Notes: a model not told the origin generated them from the letters alone. Counted from the first letter of the stretch, positions 895-16,527 are shown. The stretch is DNA of 64,000 nt from Capsulimonadaceae bacterium (GCA_965215505.1 OZ244065.1:2208001-2272000), one strand, 5' to 3'. Translations and numbers: made by a program.

Positions 895-1606
895 AATCAC
901 CTCGCTTCGCCCTATCGGCGGTCTTAGATATCAGAATTAAGATGTGTCGGTTTTGGAAGGCATGGCCCACCTTTTAAGGGAGCGGTTACCGCATATGTAA
1001 GGCACAAAATAGGTAGAGTACAAAGGCAGAGCAAAATGAGAAAGGCGGCTAAAAATGAAGAGAATTTCTGAGGGTGAATTATCAGTTTTTGGGTCAAAAC
1101 GTCAGGTAAACGCCTGAGAGATGACACCGTGACGAGGGTGTAGAGCAGTCAAGAAGTAACATGTTTCCCCTTTCCTGGCAATCTTCCGTACAGTTGGCGA
1201 AAGGCTCGAGCTTTTACCAAACCTTGTGGATGAAAGTTGCAGCAAACAATTGGTAGTACAGGAGGAACAGGTAAAACACAGTAACTGGACAACAGGACAC
1301 TGCCAGGATAGAATAACACATGAGCAACAAAGTTGTCAATACTAGCAACAGACAAATGGACACTGATGTCGAATGGTAGACAGACTGCGGTATGCGCCAA
1401 CGATTTCGCCATTCTGGAGCATTCTTATATACAAAGGTTTTGGGCGTCCTGTATTCACTGTTTTCTTCCAAGTGTTCAACAATGCGTAGAAAATGGGGTA
1501 AGATATCAACACTTCGTTTCCGGAAATATGGGGGATGAGGGGCCGTAAATTCGTGGTTTATTGCCATACATCGAACTTTGATGGTAGTAAATAACAGGTC
1601 GAGGTC

Positions 1607-6059: not shown

Positions 6060-7520
6060 ATGACCGCCCCATTACCGCCCGACGAGACCGAACGCCTGCG
6101 CGCCCTGTACGAGTGCAGCATCTTGGACACCGCGCCCGAGGAAGTGTTCGACGATATTACCCGCTTGGCCGCCCAGGTCTGCGGCGTGCCCATCGCCGCC
6201 GTTACCCTCATTGACGCGGAGCGGCAGTGGCTCAAATCCGTCGTGGGCCTGAGCGGCAGGGAAACTCCGCGCGATGTGGCCTTCTGCGCCCACACGATCC
6301 TCCAGGCGAATATTTTGGTCGTCCCCGACGCCCGCGCCGACCTCCGATTTGCCGACAACCCCCAGGTGACGGGGCCTCCACACATCCGCTTCTATGCGGG
6401 CGTGCCGCTGATCTCCGAGGAGGGACGTGCGCTCGGCTCCCTGTGCGTCATTGACACTCTTCCCAGGACTCTCACGCCGGACCAGGAGGCGACCCTGTGC
6501 CTGCTGTCGCGTCAGGTCTGTAGCCATCTCCGGGCGGCCCGCCGGGCCACTGAGCGGGAACGGGCCGAGGCCGCCCTCGTCCAGACCCATTCGGCGCTGC
6601 GGACGGTCCTGGAGAGCGCGCCCCTCATCCTCTACGCCGCCGACGCCGACGGGACGGTGACCCTGTCCGAGGGAAAGGGCCTGTCGGCGCTCGGGCTGGG
6701 GCCGAGCGATGCGGTCGGGCACTCCGTCTTCGAGTTCAGCGCGGGGGACACCGAGAACGAGACGAATATGCGCCGCGCATTGGCGGGCGAAGCGATTTCC
6801 TACGACGCCCGCGTGAACAGCGTGTGGCTGCACACTGAGGTGCGGCCCCTGCACAATGCGGACGGGACGCCCTCGGGCATCATCGGCGTCTGCCTGGATG
6901 TGACCGAGCGGATGCGGGCGGAGGAGCGGGTCAATGACCATGTGGTCATCCTGGAGTTCCAGGAGCTGCAAAAGAATGAGCTGGAGAAGGCGAACGCGGA
7001 ACTCGCGTCGCTCGCGACCACAGACGGGCTGACGGGCCTAAAAAATCATCGGGCTTTCCAGGAGAGGCTGGCGGAGGAGGTCAGCCGGAGCGCCCGCTAC
7101 GGGACGCCGCTGTCGCTGATCCTGCTCGATGTGGACCGATTCAAGCACTATAACGATGCTCACGGCCACCCGGCGGGGGATGCAGTCCTCATGGCGGTGG
7201 CGAGCATCCTCCAGCAGAGCGCGCGGGAGACGGATTTGGTCGCCCGATACGGGGGCGAGGAATTCGTGCTGATCCTGCCCCAGACCGACCTGGACGGGGC
7301 ATCGGCCTTCGCCGAGCGCCTGCGCGTCTCAGTCGAGGGCCATTCCTGGCCGGTGCGCGCCGTCACCGCCTCCTTCGGGGTGGCATCCCTGCGGCTGGAG
7401 GACTGCGGCTCGGACGTGATCGCCCGCGCGGACGAGGCGCTGTACCGGTCCAAGGCGGCGGGGCGGAACCGGGTGACGTCCTCAGCCGGGCCTTGCGGCC
7501 CCGTCGTCCGGCATCCGTGA
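6060..7520 (+). CDS. GAF-PAS diguanylate cyclase
   Basis: N-terminal GAF (ERLRALY...IRFYAGVPL), PAS domain, GGEEF active site and RETD I-site. Start placed at ATG 6060. Confidence 0.93.
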   Translation: MTAPLPPDETERLRALYECSILDTAPEEVFDDITRLAAQVCGVPIAAVTLIDAERQWLKSVVGLSGRETPRDVAFCAHTILQANILVVPDARADLRFADNPQVTGPPHIRFYAGVPLISEEGRALGSLCVIDTLPRTLTPDQEATLCLLSRQVCSHLRAARRATERERAEAALVQTHSALRTVLESAPLILYAADADGTVTLSEGKGLSALGLGPSDAVGHSVFEFSAGDTENETNMRRALAGEAISYDARVNSVWLHTEVRPLHNADGTPSGIIGVCLDVTERMRAEERVNDHVVILEFQELQKNELEKANAELASLATTDGLTGLKNHRAFQERLAEEVSRSARYGTPLSLILLDVDRFKHYNDAHGHPAGDAVLMAVASILQQSARETDLVARYGGEEFVLILPQTDLDGASAFAERLRVSVEGHSWPVRAVTASFGVASLRLEDCGSDVIARADEALYRSKAAGRNRVTSSAGPCGPVVRHP

Positions 7521-8564
7521 CAGCTCCGCCTCGATCTGCCCGACGGTCGGCAGACTGTCCAGGAGGTCATCGGGGAGGGCGTCGGTGACGCGGAACCCGG
7601 CGACTCCGATGGGCGTGGCGTTGTTCCGCAGCGCGTATTCCACCGTGACCTGCTCGCGCGTCTTGCACAGGATCAGGCCCAGGCTCGGCGCGTCCGTCGC
7701 GTGGCGCATCAGGTCATCCACGGCGGACAGGTAGAAATTCATCTTGCCCGCGAACTCCGGCACGAACTCGGTCATCTTCAGGTCCACGACGACGAAGCAG
7801 CGCAGGCGCAGGTGGTAGAACAGAAGGTCGAGGTAATAGTCCTTGCCGCCGACCTCTAGGTGGTGCTGGCTCGCGACGAACGAAAACCCGGTGCCCATTT
7901 CCAGCAGGAACTTCTGGAGGTGTGCCAGCAGCCCGTGTTCAAGATGCCGCTCCTGGGCGTCCGGTCCCAGCGTGAGGAAGTCGAAGTTGTACGGGTCCTT
8001 CAAAATCTGCTGGGCCAGGTCCGACTGGGGTGGGGGCAGCGCGCGTGAGAAGTTCGTTAGCGCCTGGCCCTGACGCCCGTACAGGCCGCTCCCGATCTGG
8101 TGTTCCAGGACGGCCCGGCTCCAGCCGTGTTCATGCGCGGCACGGATATACCAGAGCCGCTGGTCAGCGTCTTTGACCCGGTCCAGCAGCCGAACGTGGT
8201 GGCCCCAGGGCAGCGGCGAATTGTGCAACAACTGTTGCACAATTGCGGAGTCGGGATAGGCTTCCGCGAACGCGCGCATGTATTTGAGGTTGCGCGGAGA
8301 AAAGCCCTCCACCCCTGGAAACGCCGCCTTTAGGTCCACCGCCAGGCGATCCACGACTTTCGCGCCCCAGCCGTGCCGCGCCTGCCGCTGCCGGACCTCA
8401 TCGCCGATCTGCCAGTAGAGCCAGACCACCTCGCGGCTGAGGGACAGGGCCGCCCGCACCTGTGCCGTCTGGATGCGGCCCTTGATGTCCGTGAGGAAGT
8501 CCGCGTACCCCTCGAAGCCTCGGGCGATCCCGCCGGCCTCCTCTTCAGTCTCTCCTTGATCCAT
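7482..8564 (-). CDS. YhcG/DUF1016 PD-(D/E)XK nuclease family protein
   Basis: LYWQIG, GFSPRNLKYMR, KDPYNFDFL, DLLFYHLRLRCFVVVDLK and GKMNFYL motifs. Confidence 0.93.
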   Translation of the reverse strand: MDQGETEEEAGGIARGFEGYADFLTDIKGRIQTAQVRAALSLSREVVWLYWQIGDEVRQRQARHGWGAKVVDRLAVDLKAAFPGVEGFSPRNLKYMRAFAEAYPDSAIVQQLLHNSPLPWGHHVRLLDRVKDADQRLWYIRAAHEHGWSRAVLEHQIGSGLYGRQGQALTNFSRALPPPQSDLAQQILKDPYNFDFLTLGPDAQERHLEHGLLAHLQKFLLEMGTGFSFVASQHHLEVGGKDYYLDLLFYHLRLRCFVVVDLKMTEFVPEFAGKMNFYLSAVDDLMRHATDAPSLGLILCKTREQVTVEYALRNNATPIGVAGFRVTDALPDDLLDSLPTVGQIEAELSRMPDDGAARPG

Positions 8565-9842: not shown

Positions 9843-10316
9843 ATGGCGGAACTGGATCTGGCCGCGCAGCTACGCGCGACGACGGAGAGGGCCTACAGCA
9901 ACCTGGTCAACGACCTGAACGCGCTGGACGAGGAGAAGGCGAGCGGCAGCCCGGATACGGCACTGCGCCCGGCGATCAAGGTAGTGGCGGAGTGCGGGTC
10001 GGTCAACGGGCTTCTGGCGGAACTGGTGACGACCGGCACCGCGACGAGGCCGTCGCCGGAAGAGCGGGAGGTCTATTACGCCTCCATCACGACGCGCGCC
10101 GAGGCGCTGGCCGAGCTGGAGAAGGGGACGCAAAAGCTGTACGCGGCCATTGACGGCGTCGCCCCGGACCGCTGGGGCGAGACGGTGCCGACGCCTCTTG
10201 GCCCGATGACTGTCCTGGGGGCGGCAAACTTCGCCGCCCTGCACATGATGTACCATGACGGGCAGATCAACTACCTGCACATGCTGCACGGCGACACGGA
10301 GATGCACTGGACGTAG
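9843..10316 (+). CDS. DinB/YfiT family protein
   Basis: C-terminal HMMYHDGQINY motif; AAGGAG RBS. Confidence 0.8.
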   Translation: MAELDLAAQLRATTERAYSNLVNDLNALDEEKASGSPDTALRPAIKVVAECGSVNGLLAELVTTGTATRPSPEEREVYYASITTRAEALAELEKGTQKLYAAIDGVAPDRWGETVPTPLGPMTVLGAANFAALHMMYHDGQINYLHMLHGDTEMHWT

Positions 10317-10342
10317 GCGGCTGACGGCGGGCGCGGGGGCGG

Positions 10343-11413
10343 TCAGCGCCCCCGCGACCGACCGGCTTGGAGTGTGACGAGGCCCGTCCCATCGGGGTTC
10401 TCCACCAGCGCGGCCTCGACGGGCAGGAACTGCGGGACGACCCACAGCACGGTCCGCAGGTGTTCTGTCACCTGAGAGGTCGTCCAGCGGCTCTCGCCCG
10501 CCGTCAGCGCCATCGGCAGGACAAGCTGGTCCGCCAGATGCTCCTCGCAGGCCGCGCCCGTCTCCCACCACGCTTTGAAGGCGTGGCAGACCTCCTCGGC
10601 GACGGCTTCCATGCGCTTGCCGCGCTCGCCGATGGCGGAGAAACCCGCCAACCCGCCTTCGCACTCGGCGACCAGAAGAACGGCAGCCCCCGCCCCGACC
10701 GAGGGCGCTTCGCGCATCTCGGTGGATAGCTCCACCGGCAGGCGACCCACTTCCTGACGCACGGCGGCGACGCCTCTCTCAGCGACGGTCGGAGGCAGCC
10801 CTGATGTCACGACGAGGGCCGTCACGGCGCGCAATCCGCCCCGCTCCGTCAACGTGATAGGCGAAATCGCGGCGTTCCCCGCGACCTCGGCACTCACCGC
10901 CCCTCCCCCTTTAGGAAAGAACCCCGCCTTCGGCGACAGCAGAGAAGCGGCCAGGCCGTGCCGCGCCAGTGTCGGCAGATAGACGCGCTCCAGGTAGTCC
11001 GCCGTCGGCGCGTGCGAGACGTGCGTCCCGCCGGTGACGGTGACGCGGGAGGCGGCAGGGGCAAAGGCGAGCGGCATCAGGACGGTTTGCAGGACGAGGG
11101 CCGTCGCCCCCGCCGTGCCGATGGCGAAGTGGTAGACGCCGTGCGTCGGCGGTGCCTGTGGGGCGAAGCGGAGGCGGACCGACCCGATCTCCGCGCCTTC
11201 CAGCGAGGCCGCACACAGCTCGGCTGCGGCCTTGACCGAGGCAAGATGCTGGGGCTGGAGGCCGGGCCGGGCGCGGCCCGCGCGTATCCGCACGATCTCG
11301 ACGGGCCGCCCCGTCAGGGCCGATAGGGACAGGCTCGTCCGCAAAATCTGCCCGCCGCCCTCCCCGTGCGACCCGTCAATGGTGACGCTGGATTGTGTGT
11401 CTAAGTTCTTCAT
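10343..11413 (-). CDS. rtcA: RNA 3'-terminal phosphate cyclase
   Basis: IDGSHGEGGGQILRT, RAGRARPGLQPQH, GFFPKGGG and HLADQL (catalytic His). Confidence 0.96.
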   Translation of the reverse strand: MKNLDTQSSVTIDGSHGEGGGQILRTSLSLSALTGRPVEIVRIRAGRARPGLQPQHLASVKAAAELCAASLEGAEIGSVRLRFAPQAPPTHGVYHFAIGTAGATALVLQTVLMPLAFAPAASRVTVTGGTHVSHAPTADYLERVYLPTLARHGLAASLLSPKAGFFPKGGGAVSAEVAGNAAISPITLTERGGLRAVTALVVTSGLPPTVAERGVAAVRQEVGRLPVELSTEMREAPSVGAGAAVLLVAECEGGLAGFSAIGERGKRMEAVAEEVCHAFKAWWETGAACEEHLADQLVLPMALTAGESRWTTSQVTEHLRTVLWVVPQFLPVEAALVENPDGTGLVTLQAGRSRGR

Positions 11414-11428
11414 GGCTGTCTTAGTATT

Positions 11429-11560
11429 CCCGTGCAGGCAGCGCGCCTATCCGAGACTTGTGCCCCTTCGGGGGCGGCAGGCGTCGGATCTTGGTGTTCG
11501 CTTTTGGAGACACGGACCGCCCGTGACCTCCCTTGATGGCGGCGCGCATGCATGCACGAA
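11429..11560 (-). ncRNA. Candidate structured RNA between tRNA-Arg and rtcA
   Basis: Long closing stem (CGUGCA/UGCACG plus GCGCGCC/GGCGCGC) encloses two hairpin arms: GGAG..CACGG/CCGUG..CUCC, and UCCGA/UCGGA around GCCCC-CGAA-GGGGC. Confidence 0.55.
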
Positions 11561-11561
11561 G

Positions 11562-11637
11562 TGGTGCTCCCGACAGGATTTGAACCTGTGGCCTCGACCG
11601 TCGCAGGATCGCGTTCTATCCGCTGAACTACGAGAGC
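11562..11637 (-). tRNA. tRNA-Arg(GCG)
   Basis: GCTCTCG acceptor; anticodon arm CGATC-CTGCGAC-GGTCG; T arm ACAGG-TTCAAAT-CCTGT; CCA encoded. Confidence 0.92.
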
Positions 11638-11647
11638 AATTCGAAAA

Positions 11648-11718
11648 CTCCTCGACCCGGATTCGAACCAGGGCGAACGCATTAACAGTGCGTGATGCTG
11701 CCGCTACATCATCGAGGA
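11648..11718 (-). tRNA. tRNA-Asn(GTT)
   Basis: TCCTCGA/TCGAGGA acceptor; G73; anticodon arm ACGCA-CTGTTAA-TGCGT; T loop TTCGAAT. Confidence 0.9.
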
Positions 11719-11763
11719 TCACGGCCCAGCGGTCTGTCATGACCGCCGGACCAAGTTAGAGAA

Positions 11764-11836
11764 TCGTGGCGGTGGGAATTGAACCCACGATTTACAGGGT
11801 ATGAGCCTGCCGCCTTACCAGCTTGGCTTCGCCACA
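11764..11836 (-). tRNA. tRNA-Met(CAT), atypical
   Basis: Anticodon arm GCAGG-CTCATAC-CCTGT; T arm GTGGG-TTCAATT-CCCAC; U1:G72 wobble; A at position 8. Confidence 0.85.
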
Positions 11837-11889
11837 ATGCCGTCTCTCGCTGCCCCTACCAGTCAGGGGGCAGGGGCAGAGTCCGGACG

Positions 11890-12123
11890 TCAGATGTCTG
11901 ACGCCCGGCGCGTGTGCTTGTAGTCCTGGCTGCGCTCGCGGACATATTCCACGGGCTGCCGCGCCCCGGCCCCGGTGACCTCCCAGCCGTCCTGGGTGAT
12001 TCCGTCCTCCGTCAGCCGCAGGAACCGCCCGACGACGGCGTGCTTCTCCGGTATCCAGGCCATCTGGTGCGCTGGCCCCCGCCGGAGCCGGCACTGGACG
12101 TAGTACTGTGTGTAGCCGGACAT
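11890..12123 (-). CDS. 77-aa hypothetical protein inside the tRNA array
   Basis: Strong RBS AAGGAG before ATG 12123; MSGYTQYYVQCRLRRG...WIPEKHAVVG...DGWEV...RRASDI. Confidence 0.8.
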   Translation of the reverse strand: MSGYTQYYVQCRLRRGPAHQMAWIPEKHAVVGRFLRLTEDGITQDGWEVTGAGARQPVEYVRERSQDYKHTRRASDI

Positions 12124-12149
12124 GATGTTTCTCCTTCCCTTTCTGACTG

Positions 12150-12782
12150 TTACACGGCGGCCCGCGCGACCAGCGCCTGGCTGATCGCGGCGGGTACTTC
12201 GGCGTAACCGGCGACGCTCATCGAGAACGACGCCCGCCCCTGCGTCAGCGAGCGCAGGTCGGTCGTGTAGCCGAACGTCTCGGCGACCGGGACGGTGGCC
12301 CGCACGACGGCCGTGCCGTCGGCCAATGCGCTCTGGCCCAGAAGATGCCCGCGACGCCGGGCGATGTCCCCCAGCACCGGCCCGACGAAGCCGCCCGGCG
12401 TCAGCACTTCGACCAGGCCGATCGGCTCGATGAGGATCATCGGCGCGTGCTTGCAGGCATCCAGGAACGCGAGACGCCCCGCCTCGGCGAAGGCGTAGTC
12501 GGTCGAGTCCACCGCGTGCCAGCTCCCGTCCACGACCGCCACCCGCACGTCCACCACGGGGTAGCCCGCCAGGACGCCGCCGGCCATCGCACTCCTGACG
12601 CCCTTCGCGATGCTCGGGAGGAAGATGCGGGGGATGACGCCGCCCACGAGGCCGCTGACGAACTCGAACCCCGCCCCCGCCTCCAGGGCTTCCAGCATAA
12701 GGACGCAGTACGCCTTCTGGCCTTTGCCGCCGTTCTGCTTGTCCACGCGGCCTTCGCCGCGATATCTGGTCTGGTCGGTCAT
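12150..12782 (-). CDS. Stand-alone EF-G domain IV-V protein (no GTPase domain)
   Basis: KQNGGKGQ, GVLAGYPVVDVRV, DGSWHAVDST, LIEPI, GDIARRRG and FGYTTDLRSLTQGRASFSM match the EF-G C-terminal domains; own AAGGAG RBS; 210 aa. Confidence 0.9.
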   Translation of the reverse strand: MTDQTRYRGEGRVDKQNGGKGQKAYCVLMLEALEAGAGFEFVSGLVGGVIPRIFLPSIAKGVRSAMAGGVLAGYPVVDVRVAVVDGSWHAVDSTDYAFAEAGRLAFLDACKHAPMILIEPIGLVEVLTPGGFVGPVLGDIARRRGHLLGQSALADGTAVVRATVPVAETFGYTTDLRSLTQGRASFSMSVAGYAEVPAAISQALVARAAV

Positions 12783-12815
12783 GGTCTTTCTCCTTCGTTC
12801 CCGGCGTTCGAGTGA

Positions 12816-12888
12816 AGCGGAAGGCGGGGCTTGAACCCGCAGCCTTCATGGTGGCACCGTGACGCTCCGCCGATTGAGCTACTTCCGC
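12816..12888 (-). tRNA. tRNA-Gly(GCC), atypical
   Basis: GCGGAAG/CTTCCGC acceptor; U73; anticodon arm TCACG-GTGCCAC-CATGA with one C:A mismatch and G32. Confidence 0.85.
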
Positions 12889-12925
12889 ATTGACTTAGTT
12901 CCGCGTGTCCTGCTCGTGGCAGGGA

Positions 12926-13000
12926 TGGAGATGGTCGGAATCGAACCGACGGCCTCCTGTTCTTCAGACAGGCGCTGCTACCGGACTGAGCTACATCTCC
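12926..13000 (-). tRNA. tRNA-Phe(GAA)
   Basis: GGAGATG/CATCTCC acceptor; anticodon arm CCTGT-CTGAAGA-ACAGG; T arm GTCGG-TTCGATT-CCGAC; irregular D stem. Confidence 0.88.
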
Positions 13001-13017
13001 ACAATCAACAGCCGAGA

Positions 13018-13053
13018 CAAACAAAACGGCCTCTCGCGTAGTGCGGGAGGCCG
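13018..13053 (-). terminator. Attenuator terminator C (upstream of tRNA-Phe)
   Basis: CGGCCTCCCGC-ACTAC-GCGAGAGGCCG followed by TTTTGTTTG on the minus strand. Confidence 0.85.
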
Positions 13054-13082
13054 GAGGGTTCATGGTGTGGCAGGATCGCTTG

Positions 13083-13247
13083 CTACAGCAAACGCTCCCT
13101 CCCCCATAAACCCTTCGCCCCCGCCATAAAGCGGGCACCGCCCATCGCCTGGACCTGACCTAACCCCGGCGTGACACGGCTCAGAATCAGGCGGCTTCCC
13201 GCCTGGTTCGCTTGAGCCGGTATGAAATTATTATTTGTCGCTATCAT
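13083..13247 (-). CDS. Putative leader peptide C (54 aa)
   Basis: MIATNNNFIPAQANQAGSRLILSRVTPGLGQVQAMGGARFMAGAKGLWGRERLL; starts 11 nt after an extended -10; 3' codons contain the antiterminator strand 13104-13124. Confidence 0.65.
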   Translation of the reverse strand: MIATNNNFIPAQANQAGSRLILSRVTPGLGQVQAMGGARFMAGAKGLWGRERLL

Positions 13248-13258
13248 TGCTGTTTAGG

Positions 13259-13267
13259 AGTATACCA
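13259..13267 (-). promoter_or_regulatory. Extended -10 promoter (TGgTATACT) for the Phe-Gly-...-rtcA unit
   Basis: TGGTATACT on the minus strand with AT-rich upstream DNA. Confidence 0.65.
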
Positions 13268-13337
13268 CGGTTTCATGGCAAATAACCATAAAGTTTACGG
13301 AGCTATCAATTTTATTTTCATGGCCGGTTGATCTGGA

Positions 13338-13409
13338 TGGGGACGCAGGGAGTTGAACCCTGACTTCGCGCTTAAAAGGCGCACACACTGACCGTTATGT
13401 TACATCCCC
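13338..13409 (-). tRNA. tRNA-Lys(TTT)
   Basis: GGGGATG/CGTCCCC acceptor; anticodon arm TGCGC-CTTTTAA-GCGCG; T arm CAGGG-TTCAACT-CCCTG. Confidence 0.88.
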
Positions 13410-13425
13410 GTCTTCTGACGCCGCC

Positions 13426-13464
13426 ACAAAAAGATCGGCCCCGCGCTGTCTGCACGGGACCGAT
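13426..13464 (-). terminator. Attenuator terminator B (upstream of tRNA-Lys)
   Basis: ATCGGTCCCGTGC-AGACA-GCGCGGGGCCGAT followed by CTTTTTGT. Confidence 0.85.
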
Positions 13465-13488
13465 TGTGTCTGTCTCTTTTCCTCTTCC

Positions 13489-13641
13489 CTAAAGCGGTGG
13501 GAGGAGCCGCCGATGAGGCGGCGACACGATCGGTCCCAGTATGAAGTTTTTGAGAAAGCCTGAAGCCGGGCGTAGCAGAGCCACGGCCAGGCGGTGACCC
13601 GGCATCATCTTTGTATTGCGTTTCGTCGTCAGGCTGGTCAT
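13489..13641 (-). CDS. Putative leader peptide B (50 aa)
   Basis: MTSLTTKRNTKMMPGHRLAVALLRPASGFLKNFILGPIVSPPHRRLLPPL; contains antiterminator strand 13523-13537; ends just before terminator B. Confidence 0.6.
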   Translation of the reverse strand: MTSLTTKRNTKMMPGHRLAVALLRPASGFLKNFILGPIVSPPHRRLLPPL

Positions 13642-13677
13642 TAGGTTTCGTCTCGGGTCAAGTAGGCGGGCGAATGC

Positions 13678-13721
13678 AAACACAAAACGCCCGCCTTCGG
13701 CACGGTGGCAGAAGGCGGGCG
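13678..13721 (-). terminator. Attenuator terminator A
   Basis: CGCCCGCCTTC...GAAGGCGGGCG followed by TTTTGTGTTT. Confidence 0.85.
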
Positions 13722-13757
13722 CTCGGAAAAAGGTCTTCCTGCGGGCTGGGCGCGAGG

Positions 13758-13874
13758 TCACTCGCGCCAGCCACCTCCTGCGGGGATAGGGCGACGCCCC
13801 TGGAAACCGAATGAGGGTTTCAGGGTGCCGCCGACCATCGGGCCGTTATTCGGTTGTTTCAGGGGCGAGTTCAT
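13758..13874 (-). CDS. Putative leader peptide A (38 aa)
   Basis: MNSPLKQPNNGPMVGGTLKPSFGFQGRRPIPAGGGWRE; ATG is 10 nt after the -10 box; contains antiterminator strand 13771-13781. Confidence 0.65.
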   Translation of the reverse strand: MNSPLKQPNNGPMVGGTLKPSFGFQGRRPIPAGGGWRE

Positions 13875-13884
13875 CGTGGGGGAC

Positions 13885-13914
13885 ACTCTACCCGACGCGC
13901 ACTGCCGTTGTCAA
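13885..13914 (-). promoter_or_regulatory. Sigma70-type promoter of the tRNA/rtcA locus
   Basis: TTGACA-18 nt-TAGAGT on the minus strand. Confidence 0.75.
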
Positions 13915-13983
13915 GAGCAGACGGAAAGTTTTTCGCGGCGGCAGGAATTCCGCCGTGCGTGCGGTATAGTCTAGGGGAAAGAA

Positions 13984-16527
13984 ATGTCACCTAACGCCCC
14001 CACGAAGCCTCATTCCAAGCGCCCCCCGGCCGCACTGGCGACTGTCGTCCTGTTGTCGCTGCTGTCCTGGATGGCGCTGGCCGGTCCCGCCGCGCCGGAT
14101 GCTGTCGCGATCCGGCCTCTTGACAAGGCCGAAGCGCGCGGTGTCAATTACCGGCATCAGATCCAGCCGCTTCTGGCAAGCCGCTGCGGCCAGTGCCACG
14201 GCGGGGCCGCGCCGTCGGGGGGCCTCAGCGTCGTGTCACTGGCCGCGCTCCTGCGGGGCGGCGCGCACGGGTTGGACATAGTGGTCGGCAAGCCCGACGA
14301 GAGCGCGCTGATCCAGTATGTGCGCGGGCTGAGGACGCCCCGGATGCCGATGAGCGGCCCCGCCCTCTCGGTAGACGAGGTCCACTTGCTGCGCGAATGG
14401 GTTTTCGCCGGGGCGCGTGACGACGCGGTGGCAGGTGGCGCGGCGGGCGTCCAAGCGCGTCCCATCGCTCAGTTGCCAATCGAGGACGAGTCGGGATTGA
14501 GTCTCGCCGAGCTGCGGGTCAAGCACCTGGCCCGGCTGCCCCGCGCGCCTGCCGTCCCGGTCGTCAGTGCGCCCGCCTTCAACGAGATCGACCGCTTTAT
14601 CGCGGCGAAGTGGCGGGAAAAGAAATTCCCCACGCCGCCGGTCTGCGACGATAATGCCTTCGTGCGGCGGGTCTATCTAGACGTGGTCGGCGTCATCCCA
14701 ACGACCGCGCAAGCGCTGGCCTTTGTGCAGGACAGGACTCCCGGCAAACGAACGCGCCTCGTGGACGGTCTGTTGGCCCGTGATGACGACTACGCAGCCA
14801 ATTGGACTCCCTTCTGGGAGGACGCGCTGGCCTCCAACGGCGCGCACCAGGGCGGGGCCGGGTCACGCCCCAACCTGCGGTCCTGGCTTGCCGAGAACCT
14901 GCGGCACAACCGGCCCTATGATGAGATGGTCGCCGAACTGATCGACCCCACTTCTAGCGGCCCGACGGCCCCGCTGGCGCGCGGCTGGATACAGAACGCC
15001 GACCACACCGAGACGGCCCAGAGCGCGGCGTATGTCGCCCAGGTCTTCATGGGCACGGCGGTCAAGTGCGCCTCCTGCCACAACCACTTCCTGAACCCCG
15101 AGTGGCCCCAGAAGAAGTTCATGGGCTATGCCAGCTACTTTACGCCCCAGAACATGGAGGTGATCCGGTGCGAGGTGCATGAAGGCGAGTTCGTCCCGCC
15201 CACCTTCCTGTTCGACCAGCCGAGCGCGCGCAATGCCGCCGCCCACACGCCGCTCGATCAGGACCACCGCCTGCGTCAAGTTTCGCGGCTGATCGTGGAC
15301 CCCGAAAACCCCCGCTTCGCGACCTGTATCGTCAACCGCCTTTGGAAGCGCTACTTCGGCCTGGGCCTGGTCGAGCCGGCCGACGACTTCCGGGCGGAGG
15401 GCCGCGCTCCGAGCCACCCGGCCCTGCTGTCCTGGCTGGCCGATGATTTCATGCGCCACGGCTACGACCTGAAGCACACGATCCGGCTGATGCTGACCAG
15501 CCGCACCTATCAGCTCCGCTATGACCCGCGCCTGGCCGACACGTTCAGCGCCGCCGCCCCGGACGCCCCGCGCTTTTACCGCTCCCCCACCCTGCGCCGC
15601 CTGACCGAGGAGCAGCTTCTGGACAGCGTGAACGTCGCCATCGGCAACACGGGTGCGCCGCGCGCTTATTTGGACGGCGACTCGACCGCCCTTTCGCGCG
15701 CCCTCGGCAAGCCCGCCGCCCGTAACGAAGTTTCGACATCGCGCTCCGATGATGTCGCCGTCGTGCAGGCTCTGGAACTCCTGAACGGCGGGGAGTTCAA
15801 CCGCCGCGTCGCACTTGGAACGCTGGACCGGGAGTTGTCGGAGGAGCCGGAGTGGCCGCGCATCGTCAGCCGCGCTTATTGGGCGACACTGGGCCGCGCG
15901 CCGACTTCTAAAGAACTCGGGGCCGGCAACCAGTTTTTAGAAGCCGCACCGCCCATCCCGCCGAGCAGTCAGACCCCAACCGAGGCCATGTGGTGGGAGG
16001 ACGGCCCGCCCGCCGGGACGATGCTGCAAGGGCCGTGGCAGATAACCTCGGGCCTCGTCTACTCCGGCAAACAGGCCCACACCGCGCCCATCATGGCGGG
16101 CGCACAGCAGCACTACTTTCTGGGCGCGGCCACGCCGCTCTCCGTCGGGATGGGTGATACGCTGTTTACCTACGCTTATCTTGACCCGAAGGCCATGCCG
16201 CGCGAGGTCATGCTTCAGTGGAACGACGGCCTCTGGGAGCATCGGGCGTTCTGGGGCGAAGACCTGATCAACTTCGGCACGACGGCCACAACAAGCCGTC
16301 GGCGAATGGGCGACCTGCCCGCACCGGGAAAATGGGTGCGCCTGGAGGTCGCCGCCGACGCCGTGGGTCTGGCCGGGCACGAGATCGGTGGGATGTCTTT
16401 CGACCAGTTTGACGGGCGTGTCACGTTCGACCACAGCGGCGTGGTCCACGCCGTCCCGCCGCGCCCGGCCATCGTGGATATGCTGTGGGCGTTGACGGTC
16501 AGCCCGGAGTTCCAGTATATCCGGTGA
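13984..16527 (+). CDS. PSD1 / planctomycete cytochrome c domain protein (DUF1549/DUF1553)
   Basis: Signal peptide; CGQCH and CASCH heme motifs; RRVYLDVVG, VNRLWKRYFGLGLVEP and SPEFQY motifs. Confidence 0.9.
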   Translation: MSPNAPTKPHSKRPPAALATVVLLSLLSWMALAGPAAPDAVAIRPLDKAEARGVNYRHQIQPLLASRCGQCHGGAAPSGGLSVVSLAALLRGGAHGLDIVVGKPDESALIQYVRGLRTPRMPMSGPALSVDEVHLLREWVFAGARDDAVAGGAAGVQARPIAQLPIEDESGLSLAELRVKHLARLPRAPAVPVVSAPAFNEIDRFIAAKWREKKFPTPPVCDDNAFVRRVYLDVVGVIPTTAQALAFVQDRTPGKRTRLVDGLLARDDDYAANWTPFWEDALASNGAHQGGAGSRPNLRSWLAENLRHNRPYDEMVAELIDPTSSGPTAPLARGWIQNADHTETAQSAAYVAQVFMGTAVKCASCHNHFLNPEWPQKKFMGYASYFTPQNMEVIRCEVHEGEFVPPTFLFDQPSARNAAAHTPLDQDHRLRQVSRLIVDPENPRFATCIVNRLWKRYFGLGLVEPADDFRAEGRAPSHPALLSWLADDFMRHGYDLKHTIRLMLTSRTYQLRYDPRLADTFSAAAPDAPRFYRSPTLRRLTEEQLLDSVNVAIGNTGAPRAYLDGDSTALSRALGKPAARNEVSTSRSDDVAVVQALELLNGGEFNRRVALGTLDRELSEEPEWPRIVSRAYWATLGRAPTSKELGAGNQFLEAAPPIPPSSQTPTEAMWWEDGPPAGTMLQGPWQITSGLVYSGKQAHTAPIMAGAQQHYFLGAATPLSVGMGDTLFTYAYLDPKAMPREVMLQWNDGLWEHRAFWGEDLINFGTTATTSRRRMGDLPAPGKWVRLEVAADAVGLAGHEIGGMSFDQFDGRVTFDHSGVVHAVPPRPAIVDMLWALTVSPEFQYIR

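Follow-up and report, generated by a model that had tools for sequence, protein, structure and literature searches.

An island of spare transfer RNA (tRNA) genes and RNA-repair genes, whose transcription is probably gated by ribosome-sensing attenuators, lies on the minus strand of a 64,000-nucleotide (nt) stretch of Capsulimonadaceae bacterium DNA (GCA_965215505.1 OZ244065.1:2208001-2272000; hereafter the window), at positions 10343-13914. It contains six tRNA genes, a 210-amino-acid (aa) protein made of domains IV-V of elongation factor G (mini EF-G), a 77-aa open reading frame (ORF; orf77) and the gene rtcA, all on the minus strand. Its leader regions, A, B and C, follow one layout, in which a promoter or read-through path is succeeded by an open leader frame, a helix that competes with a terminator, the terminator itself and a block of tRNA genes, with the last codons of the ORF holding one strand of the competing helix. 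The order of elements proposed for this strand in the original prediction was confirmed by ARAGORN, Rfam, Pfam, a promoter scan and reading of the sequence, with ARAGORN and Rfam agreeing on the six tRNAs in the order claimed. Beyond what chance would give, every element of the island recurs in other genomes.

Architecture of the leader regions

Comparison with 60 relatives (61 genomes including the host genome, G000) and a few metagenome contigs revealed a recurring module of promoter, 43-89-aa leader ORF, antiterminator, terminator and tRNA. C-type leader DNA is present in 12 of the 60 relatives and A/B-type in 6, always within tRNA arrays, where it ends just ahead of a tRNA or, once, ahead of orf77. 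In the window, terminator B ends 14 nt ahead of tRNA-Lys and terminator C 16 nt ahead of tRNA-Phe, which leaves no room for a further promoter. The attenuators claimed in the original prediction are thereby upheld as far as anatomy goes: the leaders are conserved and are built like ribosome-dependent attenuators.

The case for competing helices is cleaner in B-type than in C-type leaders. Strand X, inside leader ORF B, forms 15 pairs with strand Y, and 95.2% of cells are paired in 7 instances, compared to 29-47% when the strands are slid. The terminator helix Y:Z has 90.0% of cells paired, and Y shares 9 nt between the two helices. Leader B RNA of the window folds into X:Y when cut before Z, and the full RNA gives -51.8 kcal/mol for the X:Y fold and -53.5 kcal/mol for the terminator fold, near-isoenergetic values as would be expected of a kinetic switch. 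An open short ORF lies between promoter and terminator in all four terminator-bearing B-type instances (4/4); the ORF family occurs in 8 loci, and homologues of leader ORF B range from 50 to 89 aa with in-frame length differences (G012, G022, G027, G015b).

C-type modules share the promoter consensus TGGTAnnnT, an extended -10 element. The extended -10 of the window promoter, P_C, is identical in G012, lies 11 nt ahead of the leader C start codon, and recurs with a spacing of 10-12 nt to the ATG in 12 further instances; we infer that C-type messenger RNA (mRNA) is near-leaderless, with a 5' untranslated region of a few bases. In all 13 C-type leaders (13/13) a spacing of 10-12 nt separates the ATG from the extended -10, and the ORF encodes 43-73 aa and ends in a stop 27-35 nt ahead of the terminator arm. 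Over the ORF spans of 12 copies, frames 0, +1 and +2 contain 0, 48 and 31 stops, respectively, and the length differences between homologous C leaders are whole codons. The start of the ORF is conserved as M-x-A-I-N-N-N-F/L-I or close to it; apart from this start, it is the open frame of leader C that is kept and not its peptide. In the window leader, 8 of codons 2-13 end in A/T, compared to 12.5% genome-wide, and the rarest codons are among them (genome usage ATA 1.6, AAT 3.8 and ACA 3.3 per thousand).

The C-type antiterminator is a 13-bp helix between the last ORF codons and bases before and into the left arm of the terminator. It has 88.5% of cells paired, compared to 29-50% when slid, and 7 compensatory pairs; none of 500 shuffles reaches its covariation score, and RNAalifold independently predicts the same helix. 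Terminator C (13054-13018), whose 11-bp stem carries a loop of 5 nt and is followed by a U-run, is invariant in 10/10 relatives; it was read from the sequence and is unlisted by the scan.

Leader A is represented by 3-4 instances only. The hexamers of its promoter, P_A, are identical in G012, and a similar promoter is found at a second G015 locus. The stop codon of leader ORF A sits in the loop of a GC hairpin, after which the terminator follows; the peptide is 60% identical in G012, and homologous DNA is present in G012, the second G015 locus and the metagenome loci L180-L184. Terminator A is kept in G015b and, with stem letters altered on both arms as judged by eye, in G027. A 90-aa ORF with a GTG start, running through terminator A into ORF B, was rejected because the frames are unjoined in G012. 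Separately, the G027 locus L134 has, at ~140-340, a 66-aa ORF that separates an A-type terminator from a B-type leader ORF and is preceded by a strong ribosome-binding site; the window has no counterpart of this ORF.

The promoter scan gave 2 promoter-like sites against 0.4 expected, and none in the interval from tRNA-Phe to rtcA, so that rtcA is probably expressed from the same read-through transcript as the tRNA array.

Accessory tRNAs, embedded genes and their recurrence

The six tRNAs score 52.6-66.9 bits in Rfam. Among the 63 tRNA genes of the host genome (6.18 Mb), each of the six array anticodons is present at least 2 times. The array tRNAs are 58-71% identical to the housekeeping copies of the host and 85-97% identical to array tRNAs of syntenic relatives (91-97% except for tRNA-Met against L103), compared to only 71-81% for the leader DNA of the same relatives. 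This better preservation marks them as conserved genes and not decaying duplicates; they are spare copies of a separate, divergent lineage, in agreement with the accessory part of the silent-array idea advanced in the original prediction. Relatives carry arrays of up to 19-21 tRNA genes (L105, L106, L107).

Some unusual tRNA calls were also seen. Elsewhere in the host genome, ARAGORN reports a tRNA with a two-base anticodon (genome 1991483-1991559) and a 92-base 'tRNA-Gly(ccc)' (1176009-1176100), which are probably false calls or unusual genes. In the G018 locus L137 (~1300-1480, minus strand), a tRNA-Phe-like gene behind a C-type terminator is seemingly split by a ~115-base insert in the D-arm; ARAGORN makes no call there, no Rfam intron family matches the insert, and the tmRNA model gives a sub-threshold match of 18.8 bits.

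The island keeps its position between the same flanking genes in several genomes. Three metagenome contigs (L182-L184) have the full order and the same flanking genes as the window: leader A, leader B, Lys, Glu, (Gln), Pro, His; then leader C, Phe, (Ala), Gly, mini EF-G, orf77; and then Leu, (Leu), Met, Asn, Asp, Arg, structured RNA, rtcA and DinB. L180 has this order without mini EF-G, L181 is a short partial contig, and G012 has the same core order, with no flanking genes in the stretch fetched. The six-gene array of the window is thus a reduced form of a 13-15-gene array. Same-site syntenic loci are kin and count as one lineage; more independent cases come from G034, a member of another genus whose array of 19 tRNAs has mini EF-G at a different position, and from G015, whose second locus combines A/B-type leaders and two tRNAs with the structured RNA and an RtcA that is 70% identical. 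The original prediction had named a lack of conserved co-occurrence as evidence that would speak against it; the combination recurs in G012 and in metagenome contigs. The wider proposal of a translation-stress rescue operon is therefore borne out in part, in its anatomy and co-occurrence, whereas silence by default and induction by stalled ribosomes are its hypothetical part.

Mini EF-G carries only EFG_IV and EFG_C in Pfam; domains II-III and the GTPase domain are missing. Its alignment with T. thermophilus EF-G (691 residues) spans residues 494-688, and it is 51% identical to the EF-G of the host. In a large protein database, the family comprises ~35 clusters of 204-225-aa EFG_IV + EFG_C proteins with identities of 51-93%, and some of their contigs are as long as 1.3 Mb; the matches that come after them are fragments of true EF-G on short contigs. 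Two motifs, GGxGQ and H..DS, are invariant in the family; they correspond to the two loops with which the tip of domain IV reaches the decoding centre. Both occurrences among the 60 relatives (G012, G034) are inside arrays, and mini EF-G is an old separate lineage, found here only within such arrays. An explanation as a split EF-G was rejected, as the host genome has one full fusA and no N-terminal fragment; an origin as a phage gene was rejected on present data, since IMG/VR gave 1 locus at 43% identity, probably a full EF-G. A profile scan of genome contigs with generic EF-G motifs returned EF-G relatives in 599 of 600 stretches, and the 80 loci kept, at most 52% identical, gave no mini EF-G context. 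Most likely, mini EF-G would bind the ribosomal A site without GTPase activity, as a placeholder, protector or decoy; alternatively, it may be a decoy for factors that target EF-G domains IV-V. The role of tRNA mimic given to it in the original prediction is purely inferential. As a side observation, C26 and C110, present in at least 90% of 26 members and valine in T. thermophilus EF-G, could form a disulfide or a metal site.

Orf77, for which Pfam gives no domain, belongs to a family of 2060 clusters at E up to 0.001 in a 50%-identity library, and all 150 matches listed are small stand-alone proteins. It matches PHROG 25356, to which no function is assigned there, and predicted structures of proteins of Caulobacter phage CcrColossus and Sinorhizobium phage phiN3; among solved structures its fold has no relative. 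The C-terminus is basic and conserved. As the most constant protein of these arrays, orf77 occurs in 17 of the 60 relatives (13 of 23 genomes of the same genus) and stands among tRNA genes in 14 of the 17 loci. Of 16 IMG/VR loci with an orf77 homologue, 13 include tRNA genes in the stretch fetched, and in 10 of the 16 a tRNA gene lies within 1.5 kb; the CcrColossus homologue, gp098, lies inside an annotated tRNA region. The fetched stretches of L094 (G013), L099 (G021), L102 (G008) and L204 (G104) have no tRNA genes near orf77, perhaps reflecting a prophage context. In a sample of 150 other genomes of the phylum, orf77 was found in just 4, of which three belong to the window's genus and the fourth to another family; this patchy distribution in relatives, phylum sample and phages, like that of the L-arrays of tRNA genes discussed below, points to horizontal spread. 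Between the orf77 stop and tRNA-Met, an 8-bp GC hairpin without a U-run (window 11840-11889, minus strand) may be a processing or stability element.

RtcA is a true member of its family and full length, with Pfam matches to RTC (257 bits) and RTC_insert (59.8 bits); homologues bear the name RNA 3'-terminal phosphate cyclase, and the 4 named ones among 120 matches listed are from Armatimonadota. The gene is the only copy in the host genome. No rtcB stands beside it, RtcB being encoded elsewhere in the genome, and RtcR has no match in the host genome. The structured RNA ahead of rtcA, which the original prediction had pointed out, proved to be real, with a conserved paired fold and compensatory changes: it fills the 148 bases between tRNA-Arg and rtcA and is conserved in G012, G011, L180, L182, L183 and the second G015 locus. 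Its fold has 45 pairs, 92.4% of cells paired compared to 33-52% when slid, and 8 compensatory pairs, figures biased in its favour, since the fold was derived from the alignment that scores it. The element is missing in G022 and matches no Rfam family. Our guess is that, once the tRNAs have been cut off, this RNA may stabilise the rtcA mRNA or regulate it. An Rfam scan of 10200-14100 at E up to 10 returned the tRNAs and chance microRNA-type matches only, with no match to T-box or riboswitch families or to Y RNA/YrlA models; a TROVE (Ro) gene lies ~0.5 Mb from the island.

Repair genes recur within the arrays of relatives and metagenome contigs, where the embedded genes include orf77, mini EF-G, RtcA (8 loci), RtcB (5 loci), a PF09414 RNA ligase with a PHA02142 OB domain (6 loci) and a Thg1-like enzyme (3 loci). 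Additionally, the host genome has a second locus, L202 (G000:C1:5944000-5949000), ~3.7 Mb from the window. Its TTGACA-N17-TATTAT promoter stands ahead of a leader ORF of 73 aa, with MTSRNHNLLAA as its start, then a B-like terminator and tRNA-Tyr; an Rnl1-type ligase (PF09511), a PF09414 ligase, RtcB and tRNA-Ile(UAU) follow in this order. These embedded repair genes and the second locus link the spare tRNAs to the mending of cut tRNAs. The RtcB of L202 is interrupted in its GSG/NH motif by ~255 bases with stops (~L202:3217-3472) and continues in another frame; the insert matches no Rfam intron family and could be an intron, an insertion or the sign of a broken gene.

The three protein genes of the island are intact and have ribosome-binding sites, a clear GGAG-type site preceding both mini EF-G and orf77, and their G+C equals that of the host. 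The genes that flank the island are of ordinary kinds: by Pfam, a PSCyt/PSD1 protein is encoded on one side, and a DinB-like protein, an aldo-keto reductase and a YhcG nuclease on the opposite side. The last of these, a YhcG/DUF1016 PD-(D/E)xK nuclease gene (window 7482-8564, minus strand), is two genes from the island, and its adjacency to the array is not kept in relatives.

Table 1 Features of the island in order of transcription, with window coordinates.
Feature	Position	Strand	Basis
Promoter P_A, TTGACA-N18-TAGAGT	13885-13914	minus	promoter scan
Leader ORF A, 38 aa, ATG 10 nt after the -10	13758-13874	minus	sequence reading
Terminator A, ~11-bp GC stem and UUUUGUGUUUG	13677-13724	minus	scan (hairpin 13703-13687), folding
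Leader ORF B, 50 aa, starts MTSLTTKRNTKMM	13489-13641	minus	ORF comparison
Leader B antiterminator strand X, inside ORF B, codons GPIVS	13523-13537	minus	covariation/pairing
Strand Y and terminator B (Y:Z 13 bp, then CUUUUUGUGG)	13424-13470	minus	scan (hairpin 13464-13434), folding
Accessory tRNA-Lys(UUU)	13338-13409	minus	ARAGORN, Rfam
Promoter P_C, extended -10 TGgTATACT (13267-13259)	13259-13295	minus	sequence reading, comparison
Leader ORF C, 54 aa, starts MIATNNNFIP	13083-13247	minus	ORF comparison
Antiterminator hairpin C, 5' strand, inside ORF C	13104-13124	minus	covariation, RNAalifold
Antiterminator C 3' strand and terminator C (CGGCCUCCCGC-N5-GCGAGAGGCCG-UUUUGUUUG)	13018-13064	minus	alignment, folding
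Accessory tRNA-Phe(GAA)	12923-13001	minus	ARAGORN, Rfam
Accessory tRNA-Gly(GCC)	12816-12888	minus	ARAGORN, Rfam
Mini EF-G, stand-alone EF-G domains IV-V (EFG_IV, EFG_C), 210 aa, own Shine-Dalgarno	12150-12782	minus	Pfam
orf77, small beta-rich protein of a phage tRNA-array family	11890-12123	minus	ORF, homology
Accessory tRNA with CAU anticodon, Met, or Ile2 if modified	11763-11837	minus	ARAGORN, Rfam
Accessory tRNA-Asn(GUU)	11648-11718	minus	ARAGORN, Rfam
Accessory tRNA-Arg(GCG)	11562-11637	minus	ARAGORN, Rfam
Structured RNA ahead of rtcA, with two inner hairpins inside a long closing stem; CAAAAGCGAACACCAAGAU conserved and unpaired	11414-11561	minus	alignment fold
rtcA, RNA 3'-phosphate cyclase (RTC, RTC_insert)	10343-11413	minus	Pfam

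Proposed mechanism and competing explanations

In the mechanism that we favour, a ribosome translating a leader to its stop would occupy or separate the 5' strand of the antiterminator, which would let the terminator form and restrict transcription to short leader RNAs. A ribosome stalled early in the leader, or the failure of any ribosome to load, would let the antiterminator form first and RNA polymerase read on; candidate causes of stalling are the rare ATA/AAT/AAA-type codons at the leader start, cleaved or scarce tRNAs and translation inhibitors. With three strands and not four, any failure of translation would open the gate. The read-through transcript would then supply replacement tRNAs, mini EF-G, orf77 and RtcA, of which RtcA would prepare broken RNA ends for ligation, with ligases provided by the second, similarly gated locus of the host. 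A bolder version, which we regard as tentative, holds that the island is a self-contained response to translation damage, in which leaders made of the rarest codons gauge decoding capacity and, on cutting of tRNAs or stalling of ribosomes, release spare tRNAs, RNA-end repair and two dedicated factors; mini EF-G would be a GTPase-less A-site factor that represents a new, EF-G-derived class of ribosome-binding proteins, and orf77 a universal helper of phage and bacterial tRNA arrays (>2000 clusters).

Several observations weigh against ribosome gating. Substitutions in leader ORF C fall on codon positions 1, 2 and 3 in 153, 156 and 176 cases, with no third-position excess, and 90 codon differences are synonymous compared to 285 non-synonymous, which leaves the maintained frame, the context of the start and the position of the stop as the only arguments that the leader is translated. 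Leader ORFs A and B lack a clear Shine-Dalgarno, and the codons at the leader start do not track the downstream tRNA. The idea that each leader senses the tRNA behind it through cognate codons is unsupported, the Asn-rich start being constant whatever tRNA follows, and we therefore read this start as a general gauge, or an Asn/Ile gauge, and not as a cognate-tRNA sensor. In RNAalifold, the C-type antiterminator and terminator can coexist, competing for 2-3 pairs at the terminator base only. In folds of nascent C-type RNA the hairpin covers 8-11 of the 11 left-arm bases in 10/10 instances, a coverage that shuffled upstream sequence matches in up to 60 of 100 cases per instance; as shuffled controls reach similar values, we dropped the count of sequestered left-arm bases as evidence. 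The helix covariation counts come from related sequences in 7-10 rows, the U-run of terminator A is degenerate in G012, and the rarity of mini EF-G (2/60 relatives) makes it dispensable for the module.

These points can be turned into other explanations. The leader RNAs could be switches that respond to a protein such as orf77, a tRNA or a small molecule, with the frames incidental or encoding small proteins. The flat codon-position spectrum, the missing Shine-Dalgarno sequences, the start motif that stays the same before any tRNA, and the constancy and basic conserved C-terminus of orf77 would all suit such a signal, which we nevertheless hold to be unlikely: frame 0 is open in 12/12 C-type leaders while the other frames are full of stops, the length differences between homologous leaders leave it open, the stop keeps its distance from the terminator arm in 13/13, T-box and riboswitch models find no match at E up to 10, and orf77 also stands beside phage tRNA genes. 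We give similarly little credence to the absence of any regulated gating, with leaky terminators, or processing or stability elements, placed between small units under constitutive low-level expression. At equilibrium leaders B and C both fold into the terminator form, the terminator A U-run is poor in G012, and phage tRNA regions, too, are dotted with annotated terminators; yet plain terminators would not explain long-range competing helices conserved with compensatory changes or the near-isoenergetic folds of leader B, and a fixed geometry of ORF stop and terminator would be purposeless in them. That the island is a decaying leftover of a phage or mobile element and no longer serves the cell seems very improbable. 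Orf77 and the PF09414/PHA02142 ligase are phage-type genes, orf77 is scarce in the sampled phylum (4/150), the window array has 6 tRNAs against 13-15 in sister loci, and RtcB is interrupted at the second locus; decay is countered by tRNAs that are better preserved across syntenic relatives than the leader DNA, by three intact protein genes with ribosome-binding sites and host G+C, by flanking genes shared between several genomes, and by an rtcA that is the sole copy in the genome. On balance, attenuation by ribosomes translating the leaders probably accounts best for these features.

Relation to known systems

According to the original prediction, the combination found here was not a described system. 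This was too strong, since stress-induced accessory tRNA arrays with an rtcB neighbour (PMC8421152) and phage sets of tRNA, RtcB, Rnl and Thg1 genes (PMC7824862) are in print. L-arrays occur in several phyla, and the trn operon of Anabaena sp. PCC 7120 is described as silent, induced by translation inhibitors and with rtcB neighbours (Santamaria-Gomez et al. 2021, PMC8421152); its control acts through direct repeats over the -10 box (PMC8421152), with TrcR as the repressor (PMC10272220). Like the L-arrays of that account, the island has supernumerary tRNAs that duplicate existing anticodons, a patchy distribution, and linked or embedded genes for RNA processing and translation. Unlike the Anabaena operon, with its TrcR and direct repeats, it has a leader ORF, terminator and antiterminator for each tRNA block, and such repeats were not noted. 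It also differs from L-arrays in having 6 tRNA genes (13-21 in relatives), a number below the tRNA array unit as given by Tran et al. 2016 (at least 20 tRNA genes, at least 2 per kb), and in its mini EF-G, orf77 and rtcA, which go unmentioned in the passages of PMC8421152 considered here, whereas its supplements may list embedded genes.

Jumbo phages carry tRNAs together with RtcB, ATP-dependent RNA ligases (Rnl) and Thg1, a set read as repair or replacement after cuts by host nucleases (Iyer et al. 2021, PMC7824862). The island resembles these sets in joining tRNAs and RNA-repair enzymes, and homologues of orf77 lie among phage tRNA genes. It departs from them, as they are described there, in being chromosomal, syntenic within a bacterial genus and of host G+C, and in having leader-peptide attenuators and a stand-alone EF-G IV-V protein; the terms 'EF-G' and 'elongation factor' are absent from the main text of PMC7824862. 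Among repair operons, rtcBA is paired with RtcR (Hughes et al. 2020, PMC7790460) and rtcB2 with prfH (PMC9304027, PMC9223846). In contrast to the former, as reported, the island has no adjacent rtcB and no RtcR in the genome, and its control is proposed to act by read-through of the tRNA array. With prfH-rtcB2 it shares the pairing of an RNA-repair enzyme with a translation-factor derivative that would act at the A site, although this factor derives from EF-G and not from a release factor.

Full-text literature searches gave no leader-peptide attenuators before tRNA genes, no array EF-G IV-V protein and no orf77 family, with the proviso that supplements may list embedded genes. The kind of system is thus known, and the parts that appear not to be in print are gating by putative attenuators, a stand-alone form of EF-G IV-V and the family of orf77. 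Control of spare tRNA arrays is known for one cyanobacterial repressor only. If our reading is true, the ribosome on the leader ORF decides, closing a feedback loop from decoding capacity to tRNA supply. The island also exposes uncharacterised parts, namely an EF-G IV-V family, a very large family of small tRNA-array proteins and a structured RNA before rtcA, each of which could account in part for the survival of bacteria and phages in the face of tRNA-cutting toxins and translation inhibitors.

Ribosome-mediated attenuators of the trpL, pheL and hisL class combine a short leader ORF, an intrinsic terminator, an alternative helix with a strand in the ORF, and rare or hungry codons. The leaders of the island share with this class the open leader ORF, the terminator directly before the genes and the alternative helix with one strand inside the ORF. 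They differ in that three strands are present and not four, in their long ORFs (43-89 aa) and in the near-leaderless mRNA predicted for C-type leaders, and the genes that they would regulate encode tRNAs together with translation and repair factors in place of enzymes of amino-acid biosynthesis.

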